Below, one piece after another: positions 5,693-46,601 of a stretch of 64,000 nucleotides of DNA. Below the pieces are notes generated by a model. That model searched no databases. It was not told the origin of the DNA and saw only the letters and a list, made by a program, of their open reading frames with translations. The DNA comes from a phage. Each line of letters starts with the position of its first letter. Position 1 is the stretch's first letter. The stretch is taken from the sequence record MZ956761.1; one strand, 5' to 3'. Position numbers and translations under genes: made by a program.

Positions 5693-5833
5693 ATGATATT
5701 TCTTGGATATGTGATACTTTTTCTAGCGTTTTATCTATTCGCCAGAGCATGTTGGATTGGGTTCTTTAGCACTCCAGATGGATTTATTTCAATAATTTTA
5801 TTTTGCATTTCAATGACGGTTCTTGATATATGA
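5693..5833 (+). CDS. hypothetical small hydrophobic protein (46 aa)
   Basis: ATG after GGAG; stop overlaps gene 47 ATG. Confidence 0.35.
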   Translation: MIFLGYVILFLAFYLFARACWIGFFSTPDGFISIILFCISMTVLDI

Positions 5834-7296: not shown

Positions 7297-8981
7297 AGAA
7301 TTTTAAACTAAACCGAGTTAGGTATCAAAATATAATGTCAGTAGGTGGAAATCCTATTGACATTCAACTAGATAAGGTTCAAAAAACTCTTATTACTGGA
7401 CGAAATGGCGGTGGTAAGTCTACTATGTTAGAAGCCATCACATTTGGGCTTTTTGGCAAGCCATTTCGTGATGTAAAGAAAGGTCAATTAATAAACAGCA
7501 CAAATAAGAAAGAACTTTTAGTTGAACTGTGGATGGAATATGATGAGAAAAAGTACTATATCAAAAGAGGACAAAAACCAAACGTTTTCGAAATCACCGT
7601 TAACGGTACACGTCTTAATGAATCTGCCAGCAGTAAAGATTTCCAAGCAGAATTTGAACAGCTTATCGGAATGTCATATGCCAGTTTCAAGCAGATTGTT
7701 GTCCTTGGTACAGCAGGGTATACCCCTTTCATGGGTTTGTCGACCCCTGCACGAAGAAAGCTTGTGGAAGACCTGCTCGAGGTAGGAACATTAGCTGAAA
7801 TGGATAAGCTTAATAAAGCACTAATACGTGAATTAAATTCACAAAACCAAGTGCTTGATGTTAAAAAAGATAGTATTATCCAACAAATTAAAATATATAA
7901 TGATAACGTTGAACGCCAGAAAAAATTAACTGGTGATAACCTTACTCGTCTACAGAATATGTATGATGATTTGGCAAAAGAAGCTAGAACGTTAAAATCG
8001 GAAATAGAAGAAGCTAATGAAAGATTAGTTAATATTGTTTTGGATGAAGACCCGACTGATGCATTTAATAAAATCGGTCAAGAAGCATTTTTAATTAAAT
8101 CAAAAATTGACTCGTATAATAAAGTCATTAATATGTATCACGAAGGTGGATTATGTCCAACCTGTTTGTCACAATTAAGTTCCGGTGATAAAGTTGTTTC
8201 TAAAATTAAAGATAAAGTTTCTGAATGCACGCATTCGTTTGAACAGCTTTCAACNCNNCNNGNNNNNNNNNNAGTATNTCGTTNNTNANTNNNGNGATNN
8301 TNNNAANNNCNANNNGTNNGTTGCTTGCNNNTNNTNTGTNNCNNTNNAAANCANTNNNTNNNCACGACTGTAGATAAAGCTAAAANAGTTAAAGCAGCTA
8401 TAGAANAAGCATCATCTGAGTTTATTGNCCATGCTGATNAAATNGCNCTGCTTNAAGANGAACTTGATAAAATTGTTAAGNCAAANACTAATTTNNTAAT
8501 GGAAAAATNCCACNGAGGAATTTTGACTGATATGCTCAAAGATTCTGGTATTAANGGTGCTATTATTAAAAAGTACATTCCATTATTTAATAAGCAGATT
8601 AACCATTATCTTAAAATAATGGAAGCGGATTATGTGTTTACATTAGATGAAGAATTTAATGAGACAATTAAATCCCGTGGTCGTGAAGATTTTAGTTATG
8701 CTTCATTCAGTCAAGGCGAAAAAGCACGAATTGATATTGCTCTTCTATTTACTTGGCGTGATATTGCTGAAAAAGTTTCAGGTGTTAAAATAAACACACT
8801 AATTCTCGATGAAGTTTTTGATTCAGCAACTGATGTTGAAGGTGTAAAAGCTATTTCAACTATTTTAGATAGTTTAAAAAATACTAATGTTTTTGTTATT
8901 TCACATAGAGACCACGACCCGCAAGCATATGGTCAGCATCTTCAAATGAAGAAAGTTGGTCGATTTACTGTAATGGTTTAA
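7293..8981 (+). CDS. 46: recombination endonuclease subunit gp46 (Rad50-like ATPase); internal tract of ambiguous bases
   Basis: 562 codons, GTG start; Walker A GRNGGGKST; N-containing tract 8255-8540 gives X residues but frame stays open. Confidence 0.9.
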   Translation: MKNFKLNRVRYQNIMSVGGNPIDIQLDKVQKTLITGRNGGGKSTMLEAITFGLFGKPFRDVKKGQLINSTNKKELLVELWMEYDEKKYYIKRGQKPNVFEITVNGTRLNESASSKDFQAEFEQLIGMSYASFKQIVVLGTAGYTPFMGLSTPARRKLVEDLLEVGTLAEMDKLNKALIRELNSQNQVLDVKKDSIIQQIKIYNDNVERQKKLTGDNLTRLQNMYDDLAKEARTLKSEIEEANERLVNIVLDEDPTDAFNKIGQEAFLIKSKIDSYNKVINMYHEGGLCPTCLSQLSSGDKVVSKIKDKVSECTHSFEQLSXXXXXXXVXRXXXXXXXXXXXXXCLXXXCXXXXXXXXTTVDKAKXVKAAIEXASSEFIXHADXXXLLXXELDKIVKXXTNXXMEKXHXGILTDMLKDSGIXGAIIKKYIPLFNKQINHYLKIMEADYVFTLDEEFNETIKSRGREDFSYASFSQGEKARIDIALLFTWRDIAEKVSGVKINTLILDEVFDSATDVEGVKAISTILDSLKNTNVFVISHRDHDPQAYGQHLQMKKVGRFTVMV

Positions 8982-16125: not shown

Positions 16126-16377
16126 ATGGAAACTTTAGTAGCAGGTTCAATTTTTATGGTTTTAGTTTCAGGTGTGTTGGCTATTATTATATACATGCTT
16201 CCATGGTTTATCGCCTTGATGCGTGGGTCAAAATCGACAGTAGGAATCTTTTTCACATCTTTACTGTTTAACTGGTCAATTATTGGTTGGTTTATTACAT
16301 TTATTTGGTCAATTGCGGGTGAAACTAAAAAGTCTGCACAACCAAATCAGGTAATTATCATCAGAGAGAAGGAATGA
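16126..16377 (+). CDS. imm: superinfection immunity membrane protein Imm
   Basis: 83 aa, two hydrophobic helices, located between 43 and 42 as T4 imm. Confidence 0.7.
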   Translation: METLVAGSIFMVLVSGVLAIIIYMLPWFIALMRGSKSTVGIFFTSLLFNWSIIGWFITFIWSIAGETKKSAQPNQVIIIREKE

Positions 16378-16523
16378 AAAGCAAAATTATAGCAGTGTTG
16401 CTTTTAATCTTGATGATTATAATAAGTATATACTATAGTGTAACGGTTCCTCTTATGATTCCAACTATTATTTTAGGTTGGGGTTTATTACTGTTACAAG
16501 TTAAATATGAATGTATCAATTGA
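16374..16523 (+). CDS. hypothetical small membrane protein (49 aa)
   Basis: ATGA overlap with imm stop; strongly hydrophobic. Confidence 0.4.
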   Translation: MKSKIIAVLLLILMIIISIYYSVTVPLMIPTIILGWGLLLLQVKYECIN

Positions 16524-19715: not shown

Positions 19716-21143
19716 GTGGTAGAAATTATTCTTTCTCATCTCATATTTGATCAAGCTTATTTTTCAAAAGTTTGGCCATATATGGATTCAGAATATTTTG
19801 AAAGTGGTCCAGCTAAAAATACATTCAAATTAATTAAATCTCATGTTAATGAGTACCATAGCGTTCCATCTATTAATGCGTTAAATGTTGCATTAGAAAA
19901 TAGTTCATTTACTGAAACAGAATATTCTGGTGTAAAAACACTTATTTCAAAACTAGCTGATTCTCCGGAAGACCACAGTTGGTTAATAAAAGAAACAGAA
20001 AAATATGTTCAGCAAAGGGCGATGTTTAATGCTACGTCTAAAATAATCGAAATTCAAACTAATGCTGAGCTTCCTCCGGAAAAACGAAATAAGAAAATGC
20101 CGGACGTTGGTGCTATTCCTGACATCATGCGTCAAGCATTATCTATTTCATTTGATAGCTACGTTGGTCATGATTGGATGGATGACTACGAAGCACGCTG
20201 GCTATCTTATATGAATAAAGCTCGTAAAGTTCCATTTAAACTTCGTATTTTGAATAAAATTACAAAAGGCGGAGCTGAAACAGGAACACTGAACGTTTTA
20301 ATGGCTGGTGTTAACGTTGGTAAGTCATTAGGATTGTGTTCATTAGCAGCAGATTATTTGCAGCTCGGACATAATGTTCTTTACATTTCCATGGAAATGG
20401 CAGAAGAAGTTTGTGCTAAGCGTATTGACGCTAATATGCTTGATGTTTCTCTTGATGACATTGATGATGGGCATATTTCTTACGCTGAGTATAAAGGAAA
20501 AATGGAAAAATGGCGTGAGAAATCTACTCTCGGTCGTTTAATCGTTAAGCAATATCCCACTGGTGGAGCAGACGCTAATACATTTCGATCGCTTTTAAAC
20601 GAATTGAAGCTCAAGAAGAATTTTGTTCCAACAATCATTATTGTTGACTATCTAGGTATTTGTAAATCTTGCCGCATCAGAGTTTATTCAGAAAATAGTT
20701 ACACAACTGTTAAAGCTATCGCAGAGGAATTGCGTGCTCTGGCTGTTGAAACCGAAACTGTTCTTTGGACTGCAGCGCAGGTTGGTAAGCAAGCTTGGGA
20801 TTCTTCTGATGTTAACATGAGCGATATTGCAGAATCTGCCGGTCTTCCAGCAACAGCCGATTTTATGCTTGCGGTCATTGAAACCGAGGAGCTAGCAGCT
20901 GCTGAACAACAACTCATTAAGCAAATCAAATCACGATATGGTGATAAGAATAAATGGAATAAGTTTTTGATGGGTGTTCAAAAAGGAAATCAGAAATGGG
21001 TAGAAATTGAACAAGATTCTACTCCAACTGAAGTAAGTGAAGTAGCAGGTTCACAGCAGATTCAGGCTGAACAGAATCGCTATCAAAGAAACGAATCTGC
21101 TCGAGCCCAGTTAGATGCTTTAGCGAATGAATTAAAATTTTAG
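19716..21143 (+). CDS. 41: replicative DNA helicase gp41
   Basis: 475 aa, GTG start; Walker A GVNVGKS; matches recalled T4 gp41. Confidence 0.95.
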   Translation: MVEIILSHLIFDQAYFSKVWPYMDSEYFESGPAKNTFKLIKSHVNEYHSVPSINALNVALENSSFTETEYSGVKTLISKLADSPEDHSWLIKETEKYVQQRAMFNATSKIIEIQTNAELPPEKRNKKMPDVGAIPDIMRQALSISFDSYVGHDWMDDYEARWLSYMNKARKVPFKLRILNKITKGGAETGTLNVLMAGVNVGKSLGLCSLAADYLQLGHNVLYISMEMAEEVCAKRIDANMLDVSLDDIDDGHISYAEYKGKMEKWREKSTLGRLIVKQYPTGGADANTFRSLLNELKLKKNFVPTIIIVDYLGICKSCRIRVYSENSYTTVKAIAEELRALAVETETVLWTAAQVGKQAWDSSDVNMSDIAESAGLPATADFMLAVIETEELAAAEQQLIKQIKSRYGDKNKWNKFLMGVQKGNQKWVEIEQDSTPTEVSEVAGSQQIQAEQNRYQRNESARAQLDALANELKF

Positions 21144-32959: not shown

Positions 32960-32993
32960 GTTGTTTACTTCCTCGGTTAGTTGTGGTATTATA
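32960..32993 (+). promoter_or_regulatory. T4 early promoter
   Basis: GTTTACT -35, 17-nt spacer, TGgTATTAT. Confidence 0.7.
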
Positions 32994-41991: not shown

Positions 41992-42015
41992 AAGGGCTTC
42001 GGCCCTTTTGTTTTA
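41992..42015 (+). terminator. rho-independent terminator
   Basis: AAGGGC-TTCG-GCCCTT hairpin + TTGTTTT. Confidence 0.75.
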
Positions 42016-42051
42016 AGAGAAATTATGATTCCGACATAAAGGAAAGTTTAA

Positions 42052-42609
42052 ATGCAGAAAACGAATCCGGGTTTGCAGAGACTATTTCAGATTCCGTCAT
42101 TTACCCTATCGAACAGTGACTTGACTAGTGAAATGAAGGCCAAAATTGCTGATACTGCAAGATATTCTTTAAAGCAAAATCCAAATCAGGATAAGGCAGA
42201 AGTTATCGAAAGATGCCGTATCGCTGTGTACGCAGAGTTTTTTGTGGCAGATTGGCTGAGCGGATATGTCAATAAAGGCCAAGAAGATGTCGATGATCCG
42301 TACACATATGCATGGGATGTTTTAGCACATCCAAAATACTGCGGGCTTCGTGTAGAAGTTAAGACACATCAAACTGACTCACGTTGGATTTCGGTGACAA
42401 CAGGATGCAGCGGAGAGTATCCATATGGTTCTGGAATAAATCTAGGGCCCATTCTAAATCATCAAGTCGCTGACTGTATAATTATATTCAACACTAAAGA
42501 AATTCATCCAGGTGTCATCCAGTACACTCCGAAGTTCATCGGTGACAGAGAAGACCTTCGTAAAGTTGTAAGAAAAAGCAACTACAACGGATGGTATCTT
42601 TCCATTTAA
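42052..42609 (+). CDS. denB: endonuclease IV DenB
   Basis: 185 aa; size and position downstream of rIIB as in T4. Confidence 0.75.
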   Translation: MQKTNPGLQRLFQIPSFTLSNSDLTSEMKAKIADTARYSLKQNPNQDKAEVIERCRIAVYAEFFVADWLSGYVNKGQEDVDDPYTYAWDVLAHPKYCGLRVEVKTHQTDSRWISVTTGCSGEYPYGSGINLGPILNHQVADCIIIFNTKEIHPGVIQYTPKFIGDREDLRKVVRKSNYNGWYLSI

Positions 42610-42622
42610 AAAATTTCACAAA

Positions 42623-42656
42623 ATGGTTTACATACCACAAGGACCGTGGTACTATA
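42623..42656 (+). promoter_or_regulatory. T4 early promoter
   Basis: GTTTACA -35, 17-nt spacer, TGgTACTAT. Confidence 0.7.
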
Positions 42657-42692
42657 CAACTATCAACTAATACGGATTTGGAGAATAAAATG
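42647..42692 (+). repeat. 46-nt promoter/leader repeat, identical to 15448-15493
   Basis: exact 46-nt identity including -10, leader, SD and ATG. Confidence 0.9.
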
Positions 42693-42896
42693 TTTACTAC
42701 AGCTGAATTAAAACGAGCAAAAGCTAAGAAAGGGCAAGGGAAATATAAAGCTGAACTAGTTAAAGAACTTCAATTTGCTGAGGCTGAGTTGAATTCGATG
42801 ATTATTCAAAATGCTCCAGAAACTGAAATTGCTCTTAAACGTATTGCGAATAAGTGTCTTCGTGATGCAATCGTTGATCTTTTAGCGGATTATTGA
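42690..42896 (+). CDS. hypothetical protein
   Basis: 68 aa from ATG after GGAGAATAAA. Confidence 0.5.
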   Translation: MFTTAELKRAKAKKGQGKYKAELVKELQFAEAELNSMIIQNAPETEIALKRIANKCLRDAIVDLLADY

Positions 42897-42901
42897 GTAA
42901 A

Positions 42902-43165
42902 ATGAAATTTAAATTTTATTATGCTAAGCATAAAATAACTGATGAGTTTGTGTCAGTTGAATATTCTAGCGATGATGAAGGTATGATTTATACTCGCTTA
43001 GGATTATCGCATTGGGAGTCTGATCAGCCTTATTTTTCAACTCCTGAAGAAATTACACGCTTAGTTAATGGTCATATGAATGATCACTGGAATGTAATTC
43101 TTTCAGATAGTCTTAAAGCGGCTATTAATAGTAATGAAATGAAAATCGCTGAGATTGAACTATGA
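42902..43165 (+). CDS. hypothetical protein
   Basis: 87 aa from ATG 42902. Confidence 0.45.
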   Translation: MKFKFYYAKHKITDEFVSVEYSSDDEGMIYTRLGLSHWESDQPYFSTPEEITRLVNGHMNDHWNVILSDSLKAAINSNEMKIAEIEL

Positions 43166-43347
43166 GTTCATTATGGTGGTGTTTTGTTTGGTTAATTAGT
43201 ATTCCATTAATTTGTTTAACATTTACTTTTGTAATGAGGTTATTATGAAAATTTTGAATTCTGTGCTTATTGCTTGTGCGTGGTGGGTTGCGCAAGTTTC
43301 AGCGGTAGTAGTTGGTATTCACATTTATTACGAATATTTTTAAAAAA

Positions 43348-43381
43348 GTTGTTTACAAGACTGTTCCTCTGTGGTATTATT
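43348..43381 (+). promoter_or_regulatory. T4 early promoter (member of the repeat family)
   Basis: GTTTACAAGACTGTTC as at 15427; TGgTATTAT -10; 9-bp inverted repeat CTGTTCCTC/GAGGAACAG bridges the promoter and the SD. Confidence 0.7.
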
Positions 43382-43408
43382 ACCCTATCAACTACGGAGG
43401 AACAGAAA

Positions 43409-43522
43409 ATGAAAAAGATTGTTAAAGCTATATGGAATGTAGTTATAATACTAGTAGTTTTGAGTATATTCCCAATCGTTTTAATGATTGATGTATTAAA
43501 CGCTTACTTTGGATTTATGTGA
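43409..43522 (+). CDS. hypothetical small membrane peptide (37 aa)
   Basis: ATG after GGAGGAACAG; hydrophobic. Confidence 0.35.
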   Translation: MKKIVKAIWNVVIILVVLSIFPIVLMIDVLNAYFGFM

Positions 43523-43529
43523 GGAAAAT

Positions 43530-43727
43530 ATGAAGCGTAAACGCGGTGCTTTTACATTTATTGAATGGTTTTTCGATAATATTTTTCCAGCTTTATTCAT
43601 TTTCATGCTGATTTTCGCCTTAGGTTCAGTTGTAGTTGGAATCTATTTGATGGCAGTTGTCGGAATGGACATTCATCAAAATGGCTTAAAATCTGTAGTT
43701 GAAACAATTTGGAATGGTGTAAAATGA
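43530..43727 (+). CDS. hypothetical small membrane protein
   Basis: 65 aa from ATG after GAGGAAAAT; two hydrophobic segments. Confidence 0.45.
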   Translation: MKRKRGAFTFIEWFFDNIFPALFIFMLIFALGSVVVGIYLMAVVGMDIHQNGLKSVVETIWNGVK

Positions 43728-43842
43728 TGAATTTGCTGAGTGGTTGGTTTTATATTCTCATGTTTTACATTGGTGCAAATTTCCCATATTGGATGGGATG
43801 GTCAACAACTGCATTCGGATTTTATACTCCTTGAGGTGAATT

Positions 43843-44058
43843 ATGAAAATCTTTAAAGATGTAAAAGTTGGTGAAATTTTCTGTTTAGATAACGGTGATC
43901 AGTTAATTCGTATTTCACCTCTTAAGAGCACTAGCGAGAAACCGACAGTTAATGCTACTTTAGCAAATAACAGTAATGAACGTTTCTGTATTGAAAATGA
44001 TACTGAAACTTATACCGTAGAAGAGTTTTGGAAATTGAGCGTCGACTGCGACGATTAA
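43843..44058 (+). CDS. hypothetical protein
   Basis: 71 aa, ATG after GAGGTGAATT. Confidence 0.5.
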   Translation: MKIFKDVKVGEIFCLDNGDQLIRISPLKSTSEKPTVNATLANNSNERFCIENDTETYTVEEFWKLSVDCDD

Positions 44059-44118
44059 TTTATCGGCCGTGTGTATTCATGCGGCCTTGGAGTAGAAAAT
44101 AATTTAGAGGAAATTAAT

Positions 44119-44577
44119 ATGAAATATATGACTGTTACTGATCTGAATGATGCAGGTGCTACTGTTATTGGTACAATCAAGGGTGGTGAGTGGTTTTTGG
44201 GAACTCCGCACAAAGACATTTTGTCTAAACCTGGATTTTACTTTTTAGTAAGTAAATTAGATGGTCGTCCATTTAGTAATCCATGTGTGTCTGCACGATT
44301 TTATGTAGGTAATCAGCGTTCTAAGCAAGGATTCAGTGCAGTTCTAAGTCATATTCGTCAACGTCGGTCTCAGCTTGCACGTACTATTGCAAATAACAAT
44401 ATGGTATACACGGTGTTTTATCTGCCTGCTTCTAAGATGAAACCTCTGACGACGGGATTTGGAAAAGGTCAGTTAGCTTTGGCGTTTACTCGTAATCATC
44501 ATTCTGAGTATCAAACACTTGAAGAAATGAACCGTATGTTGGCTGATAACTTTAAATTTGTTTTGCAGGCATATTAA
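44119..44577 (+). CDS. ndd: nucleoid disruption protein Ndd
   Basis: 152 aa from ATG 44119; matches recalled T4 Ndd ([10 protein letters not shown]...). Confidence 0.88.
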
Positions 44578-44657
44578 TGAGTAATTTCCATAACGAACAT
44601 GTGATGCAGTTCTATCGTAACAATCTTAAAACCAAAGGCGTCTTCGGACGCCAGTGA
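44577..44657 (+). CDS. stp: Stp peptide (activator of host PrrC anticodon nuclease)
   Basis: 26 aa [26 protein letters not shown], matches recalled T4 Stp; TAATG overlap with ndd. Confidence 0.85.
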
Positions 44658-44664
44658 GGAAAAT

Positions 44665-44820
44665 ATGAAATTTGTTCACGGTATAGCCTTTTTCTGTTGG
44701 TTCTTTTTATGCATCGGAACAGTAATAACTGGAGAAACTTCAGTATTTTTGCAAGCATCAGCTCAGGGCGTATTAGCGATTTTATCATTATTCGCGTACA
44801 TTGGTTCTAAAAATAGTTGA
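44665..44820 (+). CDS. ac: small membrane protein Ac (acriflavine sensitivity)
   Basis: 51 aa hydrophobic ORF after GAGGAAAAT; size and position as T4 ac. Confidence 0.6.
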   Translation: MKFVHGIAFFCWFFLCIGTVITGETSVFLQASAQGVLAILSLFAYIGSKNS

Positions 44821-44830
44821 GGAGAATATT

Positions 44831-44989
44831 ATGAATATCGCAAAATTATTAGGAGTTATTTCATTTATTTGTTGGATAGTAGCATGTGTTTTAACTATCT
44901 GTATCGATGCTAGCAGTGTGTTTTCACAAGCTTTAGCNCAGGGTATGTGTNNATATTTNANNTTTGTGTTGTTATCTNCTAATGNTTAA
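44831..44989 (+). CDS. hypothetical small membrane protein (3' end in ambiguous-base tract)
   Basis: ATG after GGAGAATATT; hydrophobic; stop uncertain because of Ns. Confidence 0.35.
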   Translation: MNIAKLLGVISFICWIVACVLTICIDASSVFSQALXQGMCXYXXFVLLSXNX

Positions 44990-45126
44990 GAAAATCTTNG
45001 GCTANTCANTANCCCNTGCTACTTTANTGGTAGCACTANANTANGGAGTAANGNTCNGANTAANTCAAGTCGTGCNTTTCATTTCNGANGTTATTATGGC
45101 ACTACATTCACTAGTATGGTAAATTT

Positions 45127-46455
45127 ATGCAACTGAATAATCGCGATTTAAAAAGTATCATTGATAATGAAGCATTGGCTTATGCTATGTACACGGTTGA
45201 AAATCGTGCTATTCCAAATATGATTGATGGATTTAAGCCAGTTCAACGATTTGTTATTGCTCGAGCTCTTGATTTGGCACGAGGAAATAAAGATAAGTTT
45301 CACAAACTCGCTTCTATCGCAGGTGGTGTAGCGGACCTTGGATATCACCATGGCGAAAACTCTGCACAAGACGCAGGTGCTTTGATGGCTAACACTTGGA
45401 ATAATAACTTTCCTCTGTTAGATGGTCAAGGAAACTTTGGTTCTCGTACCGTTCAAAAAGCAGCAGCAAGTCGTTATATTTTTGCTCGTGTAAGTAAAAA
45501 TTTCTATAACGTATATAAAGATACTGAATATGCTCCGGTACATCAAGATAAAGAACACATTCCGCCTGCTTTTTATTTGCCTATTATTCCTACTGTTCTT
45601 CTTAATGGTGTTTCCGGTATTGCAACTGGTTATGCAACTTACATTCTTCCTCATAGTGTTTCTTCTGTCAAGAAAGCTGTACTGCAAGCTCTTCAAGGAA
45701 AGAAAGTAACTAAACCGAAGGTAGAATTCCCAGAATTTCGTGGTGAAGTCGTTGAAATTGATGGGCAGTATGAAATTCGTGGAACATATAAGTTTACTTC
45801 ACGAACTCAAATGCATATCACTGAGATTCCATATAAGTATGATCGTGAAACTTATGTGAGTAAAATCTTAGACCCACTTGAAGATAAAGGCTTCATTACA
45901 TGGGATGATGCTTGCGGTGAGCACGGTTTTGGATTCAAAGTTAAATTCCGTAAAGAATATTCTTTGAGCGATAATGAAGAAGAACGCCATGCAAAAATTA
46001 TGAAAGACTTCGGGTTGATTGAGCGTCGTTCTCAGAATATTACCGTCATTAATGAGAAAGGAAAGCTGCAAGTTTACGATAACGTAGTTGATTTAATTAA
46101 AGACTTCGTTGAAGTTCGTAAAACTTATGTCCAAAAACGAATTGATAACAAAATTAAAGAAACTGAGTCAGCCTTTCGTTTAGCCTTTGCCAAGGCACAT
46201 TTCATTAAGAAAGTAATTTCAGGTGAAATTGTTGTACAGGGTAAAACTCGTAAAGAACTGACCGAAGAACTTTCGAAAATCGATATGTATTCTTCTTATG
46301 TTGATAAACTAGTTGGAATGAATATTTTTCATATGACTTCCGACGAAGCAAAGAAACTTGCTGAAGAAGCTAAAGCTAAAAAAGAAGAAAACGAATATTG
46401 GAAAACTACTGATGTAGTTACCGAATACACCAAAGATTTAGAGGAAATCAAATGA
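45127..46455 (+). CDS. 52: DNA topoisomerase II medium subunit gp52
   Basis: 442 aa; GyrA-like N-terminus; matches recalled T4 gp52. Confidence 0.93.
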   Translation: MQLNNRDLKSIIDNEALAYAMYTVENRAIPNMIDGFKPVQRFVIARALDLARGNKDKFHKLASIAGGVADLGYHHGENSAQDAGALMANTWNNNFPLLDGQGNFGSRTVQKAAASRYIFARVSKNFYNVYKDTEYAPVHQDKEHIPPAFYLPIIPTVLLNGVSGIATGYATYILPHSVSSVKKAVLQALQGKKVTKPKVEFPEFRGEVVEIDGQYEIRGTYKFTSRTQMHITEIPYKYDRETYVSKILDPLEDKGFITWDDACGEHGFGFKVKFRKEYSLSDNEEERHAKIMKDFGLIERRSQNITVINEKGKLQVYDNVVDLIKDFVEVRKTYVQKRIDNKIKETESAFRLAFAKAHFIKKVISGEIVVQGKTRKELTEELSKIDMYSSYVDKLVGMNIFHMTSDEAKKLAEEAKAKKEENEYWKTTDVVTEYTKDLEEIK

Positions 46456-46601
46456 GTCCATTCATTGGTATTACAAGCGCCGCATTAGTATCCGGTGGCA
46501 TTTTACTGGCGGGTTTAGGTGTTGTTCCTGCCGTAGCAGGAGGTCTTCTTGCATTCGGAATTCAACGTGTTATCATGACAGTTATCACAGTCATGCAGTA
46601 A
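46452..46601 (+). CDS. hypothetical small membrane protein (49 aa)
   Basis: ATGA overlap with gene 52; Gly/Ala-rich hydrophobic. Confidence 0.4.
   Translation: MSPFIGITSAALVSGGILLAGLGVVPAVAGGLLAFGIQRVIMTVITVMQ

Follow-up and report, generated by a model that had tools for sequence, protein, structure and literature searches.

The ndd.6 to ndd.2 Gene Block

In 64,000 nucleotides (nt) of phage DNA from sequence record MZ956761.1 (the window), five very small open reading frames (ORFs) encoding hydrophobic peptides lie in tandem on the + strand between 43162 and 43834. In annotated copies of the region, this block is flanked by denB (42052-42609) and ndd (44119-44577, +), the gene for the nucleoid disruption protein and the downstream boundary of the cluster in the ADUt, RB14, and T4 annotations. 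The segment 42600-44100 shows 100% DNA identity to Escherichia phage ADUt (OQ466432.1) and 95-97% DNA identity to hundreds of Tequatrovirus genomes, RB14, T2, T6, and T4 among them, and by this similarity the sequenced phage is a Tequatrovirus. By the same comparison, the five ORFs are the T4 genes ndd.6, ndd.5, ndd.4, ndd.3/ndd.2a, and ndd.2 (NC_000866, T4p275-T4p270), after which comes ndd.1. An earlier note on this DNA had presented the cluster as a discovery; since its ORFs are named and annotated hypothetical genes of T4, the block was already known.

The genes from ndd.6 through ndd.1 are colinear and on the same strand in the T4, RB14, T2, and ADUt alignments, and position, order, and gene lengths agree with those of the T4 ndd block. 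The first gene, ndd.6 (43162..43248, +), encodes 28 amino acids (aa; MSSLWWCFVWLISIPLICLTFTFVMRLL) with one predicted hydrophobic helix and matches phrog_8851 (E=3e-17). It overlaps through an ATGA sequence with ndd.5 (43245..43343, +; 32 aa, one predicted hydrophobic helix; phrog_5011, E=4e-26). Next is ndd.4 (43409..43522, +; 37 aa; phrog_3098, E=3e-21), whose product has a Lys-rich N-terminus and then one predicted transmembrane helix, followed by the full-length 65-aa ndd.3/ndd.2a (43530..43727, +; phrog_2401, E=2e-29), which carries the Pfam domain DUF7248 (PF23906). The last, ndd.2 (43724..43834, +; phrog_4135, E=2e-24), encodes an aromatic-rich peptide of 36 aa, or 35 aa if the start is at 43727, that has no charged residue. 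All five PHROG matches run end to end. Shine-Dalgarno (SD) sequences precede the 32-aa and 65-aa ORFs (GAGG) and the 37-aa ORF (GGAGG), while the starts of the 28-aa and 36-aa ORFs overlap the preceding stop (ATGA). Downstream, ndd.1 (43843..44058, +; 71 aa, soluble; phrog_2183) closes the promoter-proximal unit, with ndd next in line.

In contrast to T4, the sequenced phage carries two additional soluble genes (42691-43165) between denB and ndd.6. The first (42691..42896, +; 68 aa; phrog_4535) resembles RB32ORF266c and is annotated in ADUt and RB14; the second (42902..43165, +; 87 aa) resembles RB69ORF270c, and its stop overlaps the ndd.6 start (ATGA). In RB69, JS98, and the VR7-like phages, the RB69ORF270c-like gene is always found directly 5' of ndd.6 with the stop-start overlap kept, and this synteny together with the retained overlap suggests a conserved, translationally coupled pair. 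The claim that such small genes are routinely missed holds only in part: the T4 reference lists all five, but ndd.6 is omitted from the ADUt, RB14, T6, RB69, and VR7 records.

Coding Status and Conservation

Codon-position bias was examined in a within-genus alignment of 12 Tequatrovirus copies of the region. Pooled over the five ORFs, third codon positions account for 48/72 variable sites (P=8e-9), and the other two frames are without bias. The same tendency is seen in ndd.5 (9/10 sites, P=4e-4), ndd.3/2a (20/29), and ndd.2 (14/22, P=0.0035) taken singly. Within-genus variation in ndd.4 and ndd.6 is too limited for a codon-position test, though both genes are conserved across genera. Ndd.4 shares 58-61% aa identity with its counterparts in VR7-like Gaprivervirus phages and in JS98 (Dhakavirus), at ratios of nonsynonymous to synonymous substitution (dN/dS) of 0.09-0.16. 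The ndd.6 homologues of RB69, JS98, and VR7 share the pattern SSKxWxxIWxxxIPxICxxF, with dN/dS mostly 0.06-0.54, and the ndd.6 start is coupled to the upstream stop through ATGA, or through TTGA in VR7-like phages. Ndd.3/2a has homologues of 62-87 aa in the VR7-like phages, in Aeromonas phage 65.2, and on a further T4-like contig of 175 kb. Overall, cross-genus protein identity is 37-61% with synonymous sites saturated. The order ndd.6, ndd.4, ndd.2a is kept in Gaprivervirus phages and partly kept in Dhakavirus and Mosigvirus. For ndd.5 and ndd.2, no homologue was detected in the non-Tequatrovirus loci examined, and gene content at the locus varies between genera. Other searches added little: with Ndd as query, the locus search returned only five near-identical viral contigs, and a word-indexed protein search returned close relatives only. 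The position-3 bias and the cross-genus conservation together indicate that the five ORFs are genuine coding genes, and their pattern of substitution is that of genes under purifying selection. One side observation concerns ndd.6, which in one 169,650-bp phage contig has a +2 insertion at its 3' end, near 43238.

The arrangement of the ORFs was compared with a null of 2000 dinucleotide-preserving shuffles. The five ORFs that start with ATG and have at least 27 codons cover 86% of 43150-43845 on one strand, and all are hydrophobic. The shuffles average 1.85 ORFs, with 30% of the interval covered; 0.05% of them reach 85% coverage or more, and likewise 0.05% contain at least five hydrophobic ORFs. 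The expectation of at least four tandem hydrophobic ORFs at 43162-43835 is thus borne out, with five present in an arrangement that is rare by chance. The strand is 40% T, and base composition alone yields about 1.2 hydrophobic ORFs per shuffle. Composition therefore accounts for part of the hydrophobicity and not for the tiling, and hydrophobicity by itself is unconvincing as evidence of coding.

This composition is also the starting point for an account in which the ORFs are untranslated and the interval is a T-rich non-coding spacer or regulatory cassette, the hydrophobic ORFs being a by-product. The promoter and hairpin elements within the block (described below) would suit such a cassette, as would the lack of any peptide detected by mass spectrometry. 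However, the third-position bias, a variation that is dominated by synonymous changes and otherwise consists of conservative replacements, and the cross-genus protein identity at saturated synonymous sites all speak for translation, as do the conserved SD sites and the ATGA/TTGA coupling. No RNA family of Rfam matched in 42000-45200, and the tiling is reproduced in very few shuffles. An untranslated cassette is thus hardly tenable.

Hydrophobicity and Membrane Character

The grand average of hydropathy of the five products is 0.58-1.80, and each contains one hydrophobic stretch that is 19 or more residues long. The maximum 19-residue Kyte-Doolittle means, from ndd.6 to ndd.2, are 2.31, 2.17, 3.05, 2.71, and 1.17, with ndd.2 the weakest. 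On hydropathy, each of the five peptides has one predicted membrane-spanning helix. The single-pass part of the proposal that these are single- or double-pass peptides is accordingly retained, whereas the double-pass part is not, as the 65-aa protein is modelled with one long helix (residues 19-51). Hydropathy and the AlphaFold model agree on the prediction of membrane peptides.

An alternative view of where these peptides reside comes from the databases. The T4 and RefSeq annotations carry location names that place ndd.6, ndd.5, and ndd.2 in the outer membrane and ndd.2a in the periplasm, which would make the products exported and processed peptides or lipopeptides. In keeping with this, residues 8-11 of ndd.5 read LIAC, which resembles a lipobox and has a conserved Cys. 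However, a bacterial lipobox, [LVI][ASTVI][GAS]C, closes a signal peptide of roughly 15-25 residues; the segment that precedes the Cys of ndd.5 is just 10 residues long, and a signal peptide of 10 residues is shorter than known lipoprotein signals. The IPLIC (PLIC) of ndd.6 is without a small residue at -1 and so does not match a lipobox. A single hydrophobic helix of some 20-30 residues makes up nearly the whole of each peptide, and hardly anything would be left after cleavage. The model of Ndd.2a is an unbroken helix of 33 residues, in which nothing resembles a cleavage site. The location names appear to be old predictions for which no experimental support was found, and it is scarcely plausible that they are right.

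The ndd.3/ndd.2a Gene and the DUF7248 Family

In the T4 reference, the 65-aa ORF is split into "ndd.3" (26 aa, in another frame) and "ndd.2a" (40 aa, from an internal Met start). In the alignment, NC_000866 alone is missing 1 nt just after the start codon, near 43535, and the intact 198-nt ORF is present and annotated in resequenced T4 (MT984581.1) and in T4T (HM137666.1). Since the reference alone lacks this nucleotide, the division into ndd.3 and ndd.2a is an artefact of the reference sequence. Two further variants of the gene were observed: in T2, a nonsense codon (TCA to TAA) interrupts ndd.3/2a at 43626-43628, and in Shigella phage Sf25, a single protein (P0007) is an ndd.4::ndd.2a fusion.

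The full-length protein matches Pfam DUF7248 over residues 13-63 with 70.5 bits against a cut-off of 27 bits (E=1e-19). It has a basic N-terminus (KRKR), one long predicted transmembrane helix, and a conserved C-terminal motif, NGLKSVVETIWNG. An AlphaFold2 model built on the family alignment (mean predicted confidence, pLDDT, 86.8) places an amphipathic helix at residues 5-17, the long helix at 19-51, and, beyond a break at G52, a second and short amphipathic helix at 53-62. When 1.84 billion representative proteins were searched with a profile, about 20 small proteins of 47-76 aa were recovered that share the basic N-terminus, the single hydrophobic helix, and the C-terminal motif, and from which the phage protein does not differ in kind. 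The family motif reads (E/D)xxxxGLK(S/G/N)(V/I)(V/I)ExIW(N/E/D)G, with G52, K54, W61, and G63 invariant in an alignment of 23 members. The members lie on large phage contigs among other small genes, and no constant neighbouring gene was found around the distant ones. The strict motif has 0 matches among the genomes of 185,579 bacterial and archaeal species. A relaxed motif gives 43 matches in the same genomes against about 35 expected by chance (a hand estimate); 3 of these are real, all on contigs of metagenome-assembled genomes, and the remainder were rejected as an unrelated recurrent frame, "HGFKVVVEHVWLG". DUF7248 thus seems to occur almost exclusively on phage and metagenomic contigs. 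No mention of DUF7248 or PF23906 was found in the literature.

Outside the small-protein family, the profile matches only four proteins, all of them tape-measure proteins (P0012, P0016, P0020, and P0025; 820-976 aa, PF10145). Each is matched 5-10 times by the C-terminal DUF7248 motif (Ndd.3/2a residues 51-65, 43680-43727). The 11-residue repeats of these proteins include the string ...ETVWNGIKS..., and the alignment of "WNGLKSIVDTIWGG" in P0016 with "NGLKSVVETIWNG" in Ndd.2a has an hhalign E=6e-5 over 18 columns. Repeats of 11 residues marked by W or F, beside hydrophobic segments, have been described before in tape-measure proteins (PMC8616913). The DUF7248 motif is nearly identical to one such repeat unit (ETIWNG(I/L)KS) and likewise comes after hydrophobic, membrane-like segments. 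Ndd.2a differs from the tape-measure proteins in having one unit in 65 aa, compared to 9-20 units in 800-1000 aa.

This resemblance could be read as function, with Ndd.3/2a acting as a membrane-anchored tape-measure repeat unit that would block entry of a superinfecting genome, and the cluster as an exclusion battery like Imm and Sp. The exclusive match of the profile to tape-measure proteins and their known repeats count in favour of this reading, as does the fact that T4 encodes early membrane or periplasmic exclusion proteins (PMC7677548). However, the match covers 12-18 residues only, and at that length it is not significant alone when so large a library is searched. The tape-measure proteins that carry the repeat (3055 records) come almost exclusively from phages that infect Gram-positive bacteria (Lactococcus, Staphylococcus, Mycobacterium, and others) and do not compete with T4, which makes mimicry of competitors' tape-measure proteins by Ndd.2a unlikely. 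Mimicry of the T4 tape-measure protein gp29 was also considered and rejected, as there is no match by hidden Markov model and BLASTP gives E=0.14 against that single sequence, in which the motif is missing; a Pfam search finds no PF10145 domain in Ndd.2a. Given the shortness of the match, the Gram-positive hosts, and the lack of significant similarity in gp29, the resemblance is not taken as homology. Convergence on a membrane-adjacent amphipathic helix would be at least as likely as common descent, and a tape-measure-based exclusion device is very improbable.

Early Promoters and a Hairpin in the ndd.4 Leader

Two T4-type early promoters were located in pattern and sigma-70 scans. The pattern, GTTTAC(A/T), a spacer of about 17 nt, and (TG)GTA(T/C)(A/T)AT, has 20 matches in the window against 4.6 expected. 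The upstream promoter (42626..42655, +; GTTTACA...TGGTACTAT) probably drives the two soluble ORFs, ndd.6, and ndd.5. The second (43351..43380, +) consists of GTTTACA, a 17-nt spacer, and the extended -10 element TGGTATTAT; from its position inside the cluster it would drive only ndd.4 and the genes downstream (ndd.3/2a, ndd.2, and ndd.1). The block had been described as driven by an early promoter, and a textbook T4 early promoter does exist at 43351-43380; however, it lies inside the cluster, and ndd.6 and ndd.5 stand behind the one at 42626-42655. The promoter-leader stretch (about 43339-43415) also has matches elsewhere in T4-like genomes.

The internal promoter overlaps a predicted RNA hairpin (43361..43405, +) that has a 15-bp stem (43361-43375/43391-43405) and a 15-nt loop, with a minimum free energy of -23.4 kcal/mol (z=-3.98). 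Its 5' arm is the promoter spacer and its 3' arm is the ndd.4 leader, including the SD sequence GGAGG (43396-43400), while the loop contains the end of the -10 element (43380). Because MAFFT had set the arms out of register, stem pairs were counted from the base of the stem. Counted in this way, the Tequatrovirus, VR7-like, and JS98 leaders each form 12/12 canonical pairs, whereas swapping arms between Tequatrovirus and VR7 or JS98 leaves 5-7/12 pairs, and between VR7 and JS98 11/12. Double compensatory changes are seen at six stem positions, and by this covariation the predicted hairpin is conserved across Tequatrovirus, Gaprivervirus, and Dhakavirus.

Transcripts from the internal promoter would start within the loop and thus be without the 5' arm, while transcripts reading through from upstream would bury the ribosome-binding site (RBS) of ndd.4. 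The hairpin probably restricts translation of ndd.4 to transcripts from its own promoter. RBS-sequestering hairpins combined with an internal promoter have been described for the T4 genes e, soc, and 49 and for I-TevI (PMC3014915). As in these cases, the predicted ndd.4 fold has the SD buried in transcripts started upstream and the proximal promoter inside the structure. However, the internal promoter of ndd.4 is early, unlike in those cases, so that both transcript types would be early. The ndd.4 SD also contains GGAG, the motif of the RegB nuclease (PMC3014915). Strong stems between the spacer or -10 region and the leader were also observed at the early promoters at 21143, 21646, 27769, 32963, and 34068 (start plus about 60 nt), and the stem at 32963 includes the SD GAGGA. 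Spacer-to-leader stems may be a general design of such promoter cassettes.

Expression and Dispensability in T4

In a time course of T4 infection, the RNAs of ndd.2, ndd.2a, ndd.3, ndd.4, ndd.5, and ndd.6 were classed as early, and Ndd and Ndd.1 were early as both RNA and protein (PMC9697503 supplement 4). Genome-wide knock-down in T4 by CRISPRi-ART (dCas13d) scored each of the genes as "Not Fit," a score that stands for unchanged fitness (PMC11879866 supplement 15). The rIIB-52 interval is the classical non-essential and hyperplastic "D region," and viable T4 strains, such as T4GT7, are without the whole of it (PMC12115623). The locus has also served as an example of T4/PST cassette exchange in work on promoter/stem-loop (PeSL) elements (PMC4122927). 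The five genes are therefore dispensable under laboratory conditions. The null result of the knock-down, the viable deletions, the nonsense codon in T2, the variable gene content, and the modular exchange together mark the block as accessory. On the role in host takeover or superinfection exclusion for which the peptides had been put forward as candidates, the only functional data found, the knock-down (PMC11879866) and the viable rIIB-52 deletion (PMC12115623), are negative.

The same data bear on the possibility that these are membrane-damaging peptides, similar to type I toxins or holins, which would depolarise or permeabilise the inner membrane and thereby aid host shut-off. The peptides do have the build for it, being very small, strongly hydrophobic, early, and predicted to form a single helix, with ndd.2 free of charged residues, and the neighbouring ndd is a highly toxic host-takeover gene (PMC12115623). 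However, the products show no similarity to toxin or holin families in PHROGs, Pfam, NCBIfam, or PADLOC, and the conservation of GLKxxxExxWxG in DUF7248 and of IPxIC in ndd.6 argues against a generic membrane toxin. T4 also needs an energised membrane in early and middle infection, which counts further against such an activity. Knock-down brought no change in phage fitness (PMC11879866), and a membrane-damaging function is unlikely.

Proposed Function

We favour the interpretation that the block is a selected, early set of genes for small inner-membrane proteins that act as accessory modulators of the host membrane, with a conditional benefit to the phage. The coding and membrane part of this proposal is very probable; the proposal as a whole, including the modulator role, is somewhat more probable than its negation. 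The peptides would become inserted in the inner membrane of the host during the first minutes of infection, with the hairpin permitting translation of ndd.4 only from its own transcripts. As ndd.5, ndd.4, and ndd.2a have basic N-termini, the positive-inside rule points to an N-in, C-out orientation, which would place the GLKSVVExIWxG helix at the periplasmic face. Once inserted, the peptides would modulate complexes of the host inner membrane, by analogy with AcrZ and MgrB, which tune larger partners. Sequence-specific conservation (GLKxxxExxWxG, and IPxIC in ndd.6) favours specific contacts over generic hydrophobicity. The benefit would be conditional and host-specific, such as countering a membrane-associated defence, altering envelope permeability, or excluding competitors, and no core lytic step would be involved.

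Several comparisons inform this proposal. Like Imm, Sp, and Ac, which act at the envelope, the ndd peptides are small, early, non-essential T4 proteins; Imm and Ac are also small membrane proteins, and the ac genes are located about 1 kb downstream. However, no cross-match to the imm or sp families was found in PHROG or Pfam, each ndd peptide matching no PHROG but its own, and the ndd peptides have 28-65 aa, compared to 83 aa for Imm. The bacterial proteins AcrZ, MgrB, and MgtS and the type I toxins TisB and Hok are likewise shorter than 70 aa, have a single transmembrane helix, and are often missed by gene callers and proteomics. The ndd peptides differ from these in being phage-encoded and made early, and they show no homology to them in Pfam or NCBIfam, so that the likeness is one of analogy only.

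Several points weigh against the modulator proposal. The function is drawn by analogy from bacterial small membrane regulators and from T4 Imm and Ac, and the topology has the positive-inside rule as its sole basis. Searches of NCBIfam, PADLOC, and PDB gave no informative match for the ndd peptides, and Pfam gave only DUF7248, a family without a described function. A match of ndd.4 to KwaA (E=0.0085) was set aside as one of transmembrane composition. The evidence for ndd.6 is thin, with 6 variable sites only within Tequatrovirus and one cross-genus pair at a dN/dS of about 1. In addition, no peptide of ndd.2-ndd.6 was detected in the T4 proteome time course (PMC9697503 supplement 4). Non-detection is to be expected of peptides this tiny and hydrophobic, but it leaves their translation as a prediction.

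A more ambitious combination of these elements, which is highly unlikely as a whole, would treat DUF7248 as a phage-specific module made of a transmembrane helix and one hendecad of the tape-measure type. On the periplasmic side, its conserved GLKSVVExIWxG helix would dock onto a membrane or coiled-coil partner such as a genome-entry or defence complex. With ndd.4, its frequent upstream partner, the module would make up a two-component membrane device for blocking or gating either the entry of DNA or an immune sensor embedded in the membrane. As a separate matter, hairpins joining early-promoter spacers to leaders could constitute a general rule that ties the translation of accessory genes to their own promoters.

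Neighbouring Small ORFs and Database Records

The four other small hydrophobic ORFs to which the earlier note had drawn attention, at 44831-44989, 46452-46601, 16374-16523, and 5693-5833, exist, and all of them are hydrophobic. Three of the four appear to correspond to annotated coding sequences in ADUt (that near 5693 with an offset of 6 nt), and the fourth matches T4 motA.1 by position and length. The first of them is the downstream member of two tandem small membrane ORFs that resemble ac (acridine resistance), at 44665-44820 (51 aa) and 44831-44989 (52 aa). As T4 and RB14 each annotate one ac (51 and 52 aa), the sequenced phage may, by length and position, carry a tandem ac-like pair. Between ndd and this pair, an ORF of 26 codons (44577-44657) overlaps the ndd stop at the position of stp in T4 and RB14 and is unannotated in ADUt; stp is annotated in T4 and RB14 as the activator of the host PrrC anticodon nuclease. 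The sequence also contains 98 scattered N characters in two patches, 8255-8555 and 44938-45089, and these garble the translated products of 52.1 and of the second ac-like ORF. At 44938-45089 ordinary bases stand in the ADUt record, so that the Ns do not belong to the sequence deposited there.

Many GenBank records assign wrong product names to homologues of ndd.5-ndd.2 (43245-43834), including "naphthalene 1,2-dioxygenase," "chaperone for long tail fiber formation," "baseplate wedge subunit," and "dNMP kinase." In phage fPS-90, the neighbouring ac-like small ORF is labelled "sugar ABC transporter permease." Literature searches for ndd.2a and for the T4p27x locus tags found nothing relevant, and hits to the gene name were swamped by "NDD" in the sense of neurodevelopmental disorder.

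Significance

The additions made here to what was already recorded for the block are minor: a corrected gene model for ndd.3/2a, a definition of the DUF7248 motif, and a predicted, covarying leader hairpin. The block nevertheless shows how poorly the smallest phage proteins are handled, as five conserved, selected genes of the best-studied phage are without an assigned function. These genes are invisible to shotgun proteomics, omitted or absurdly named in GenBank, and, in one case, split by an error in the reference sequence. A clean gene model and two handles, the invariant G-K-W-G of DUF7248 and the hairpin predicted to gate ndd.4, should make it easier to test whether these early genes have conditional roles in evading host defence or in exclusion.

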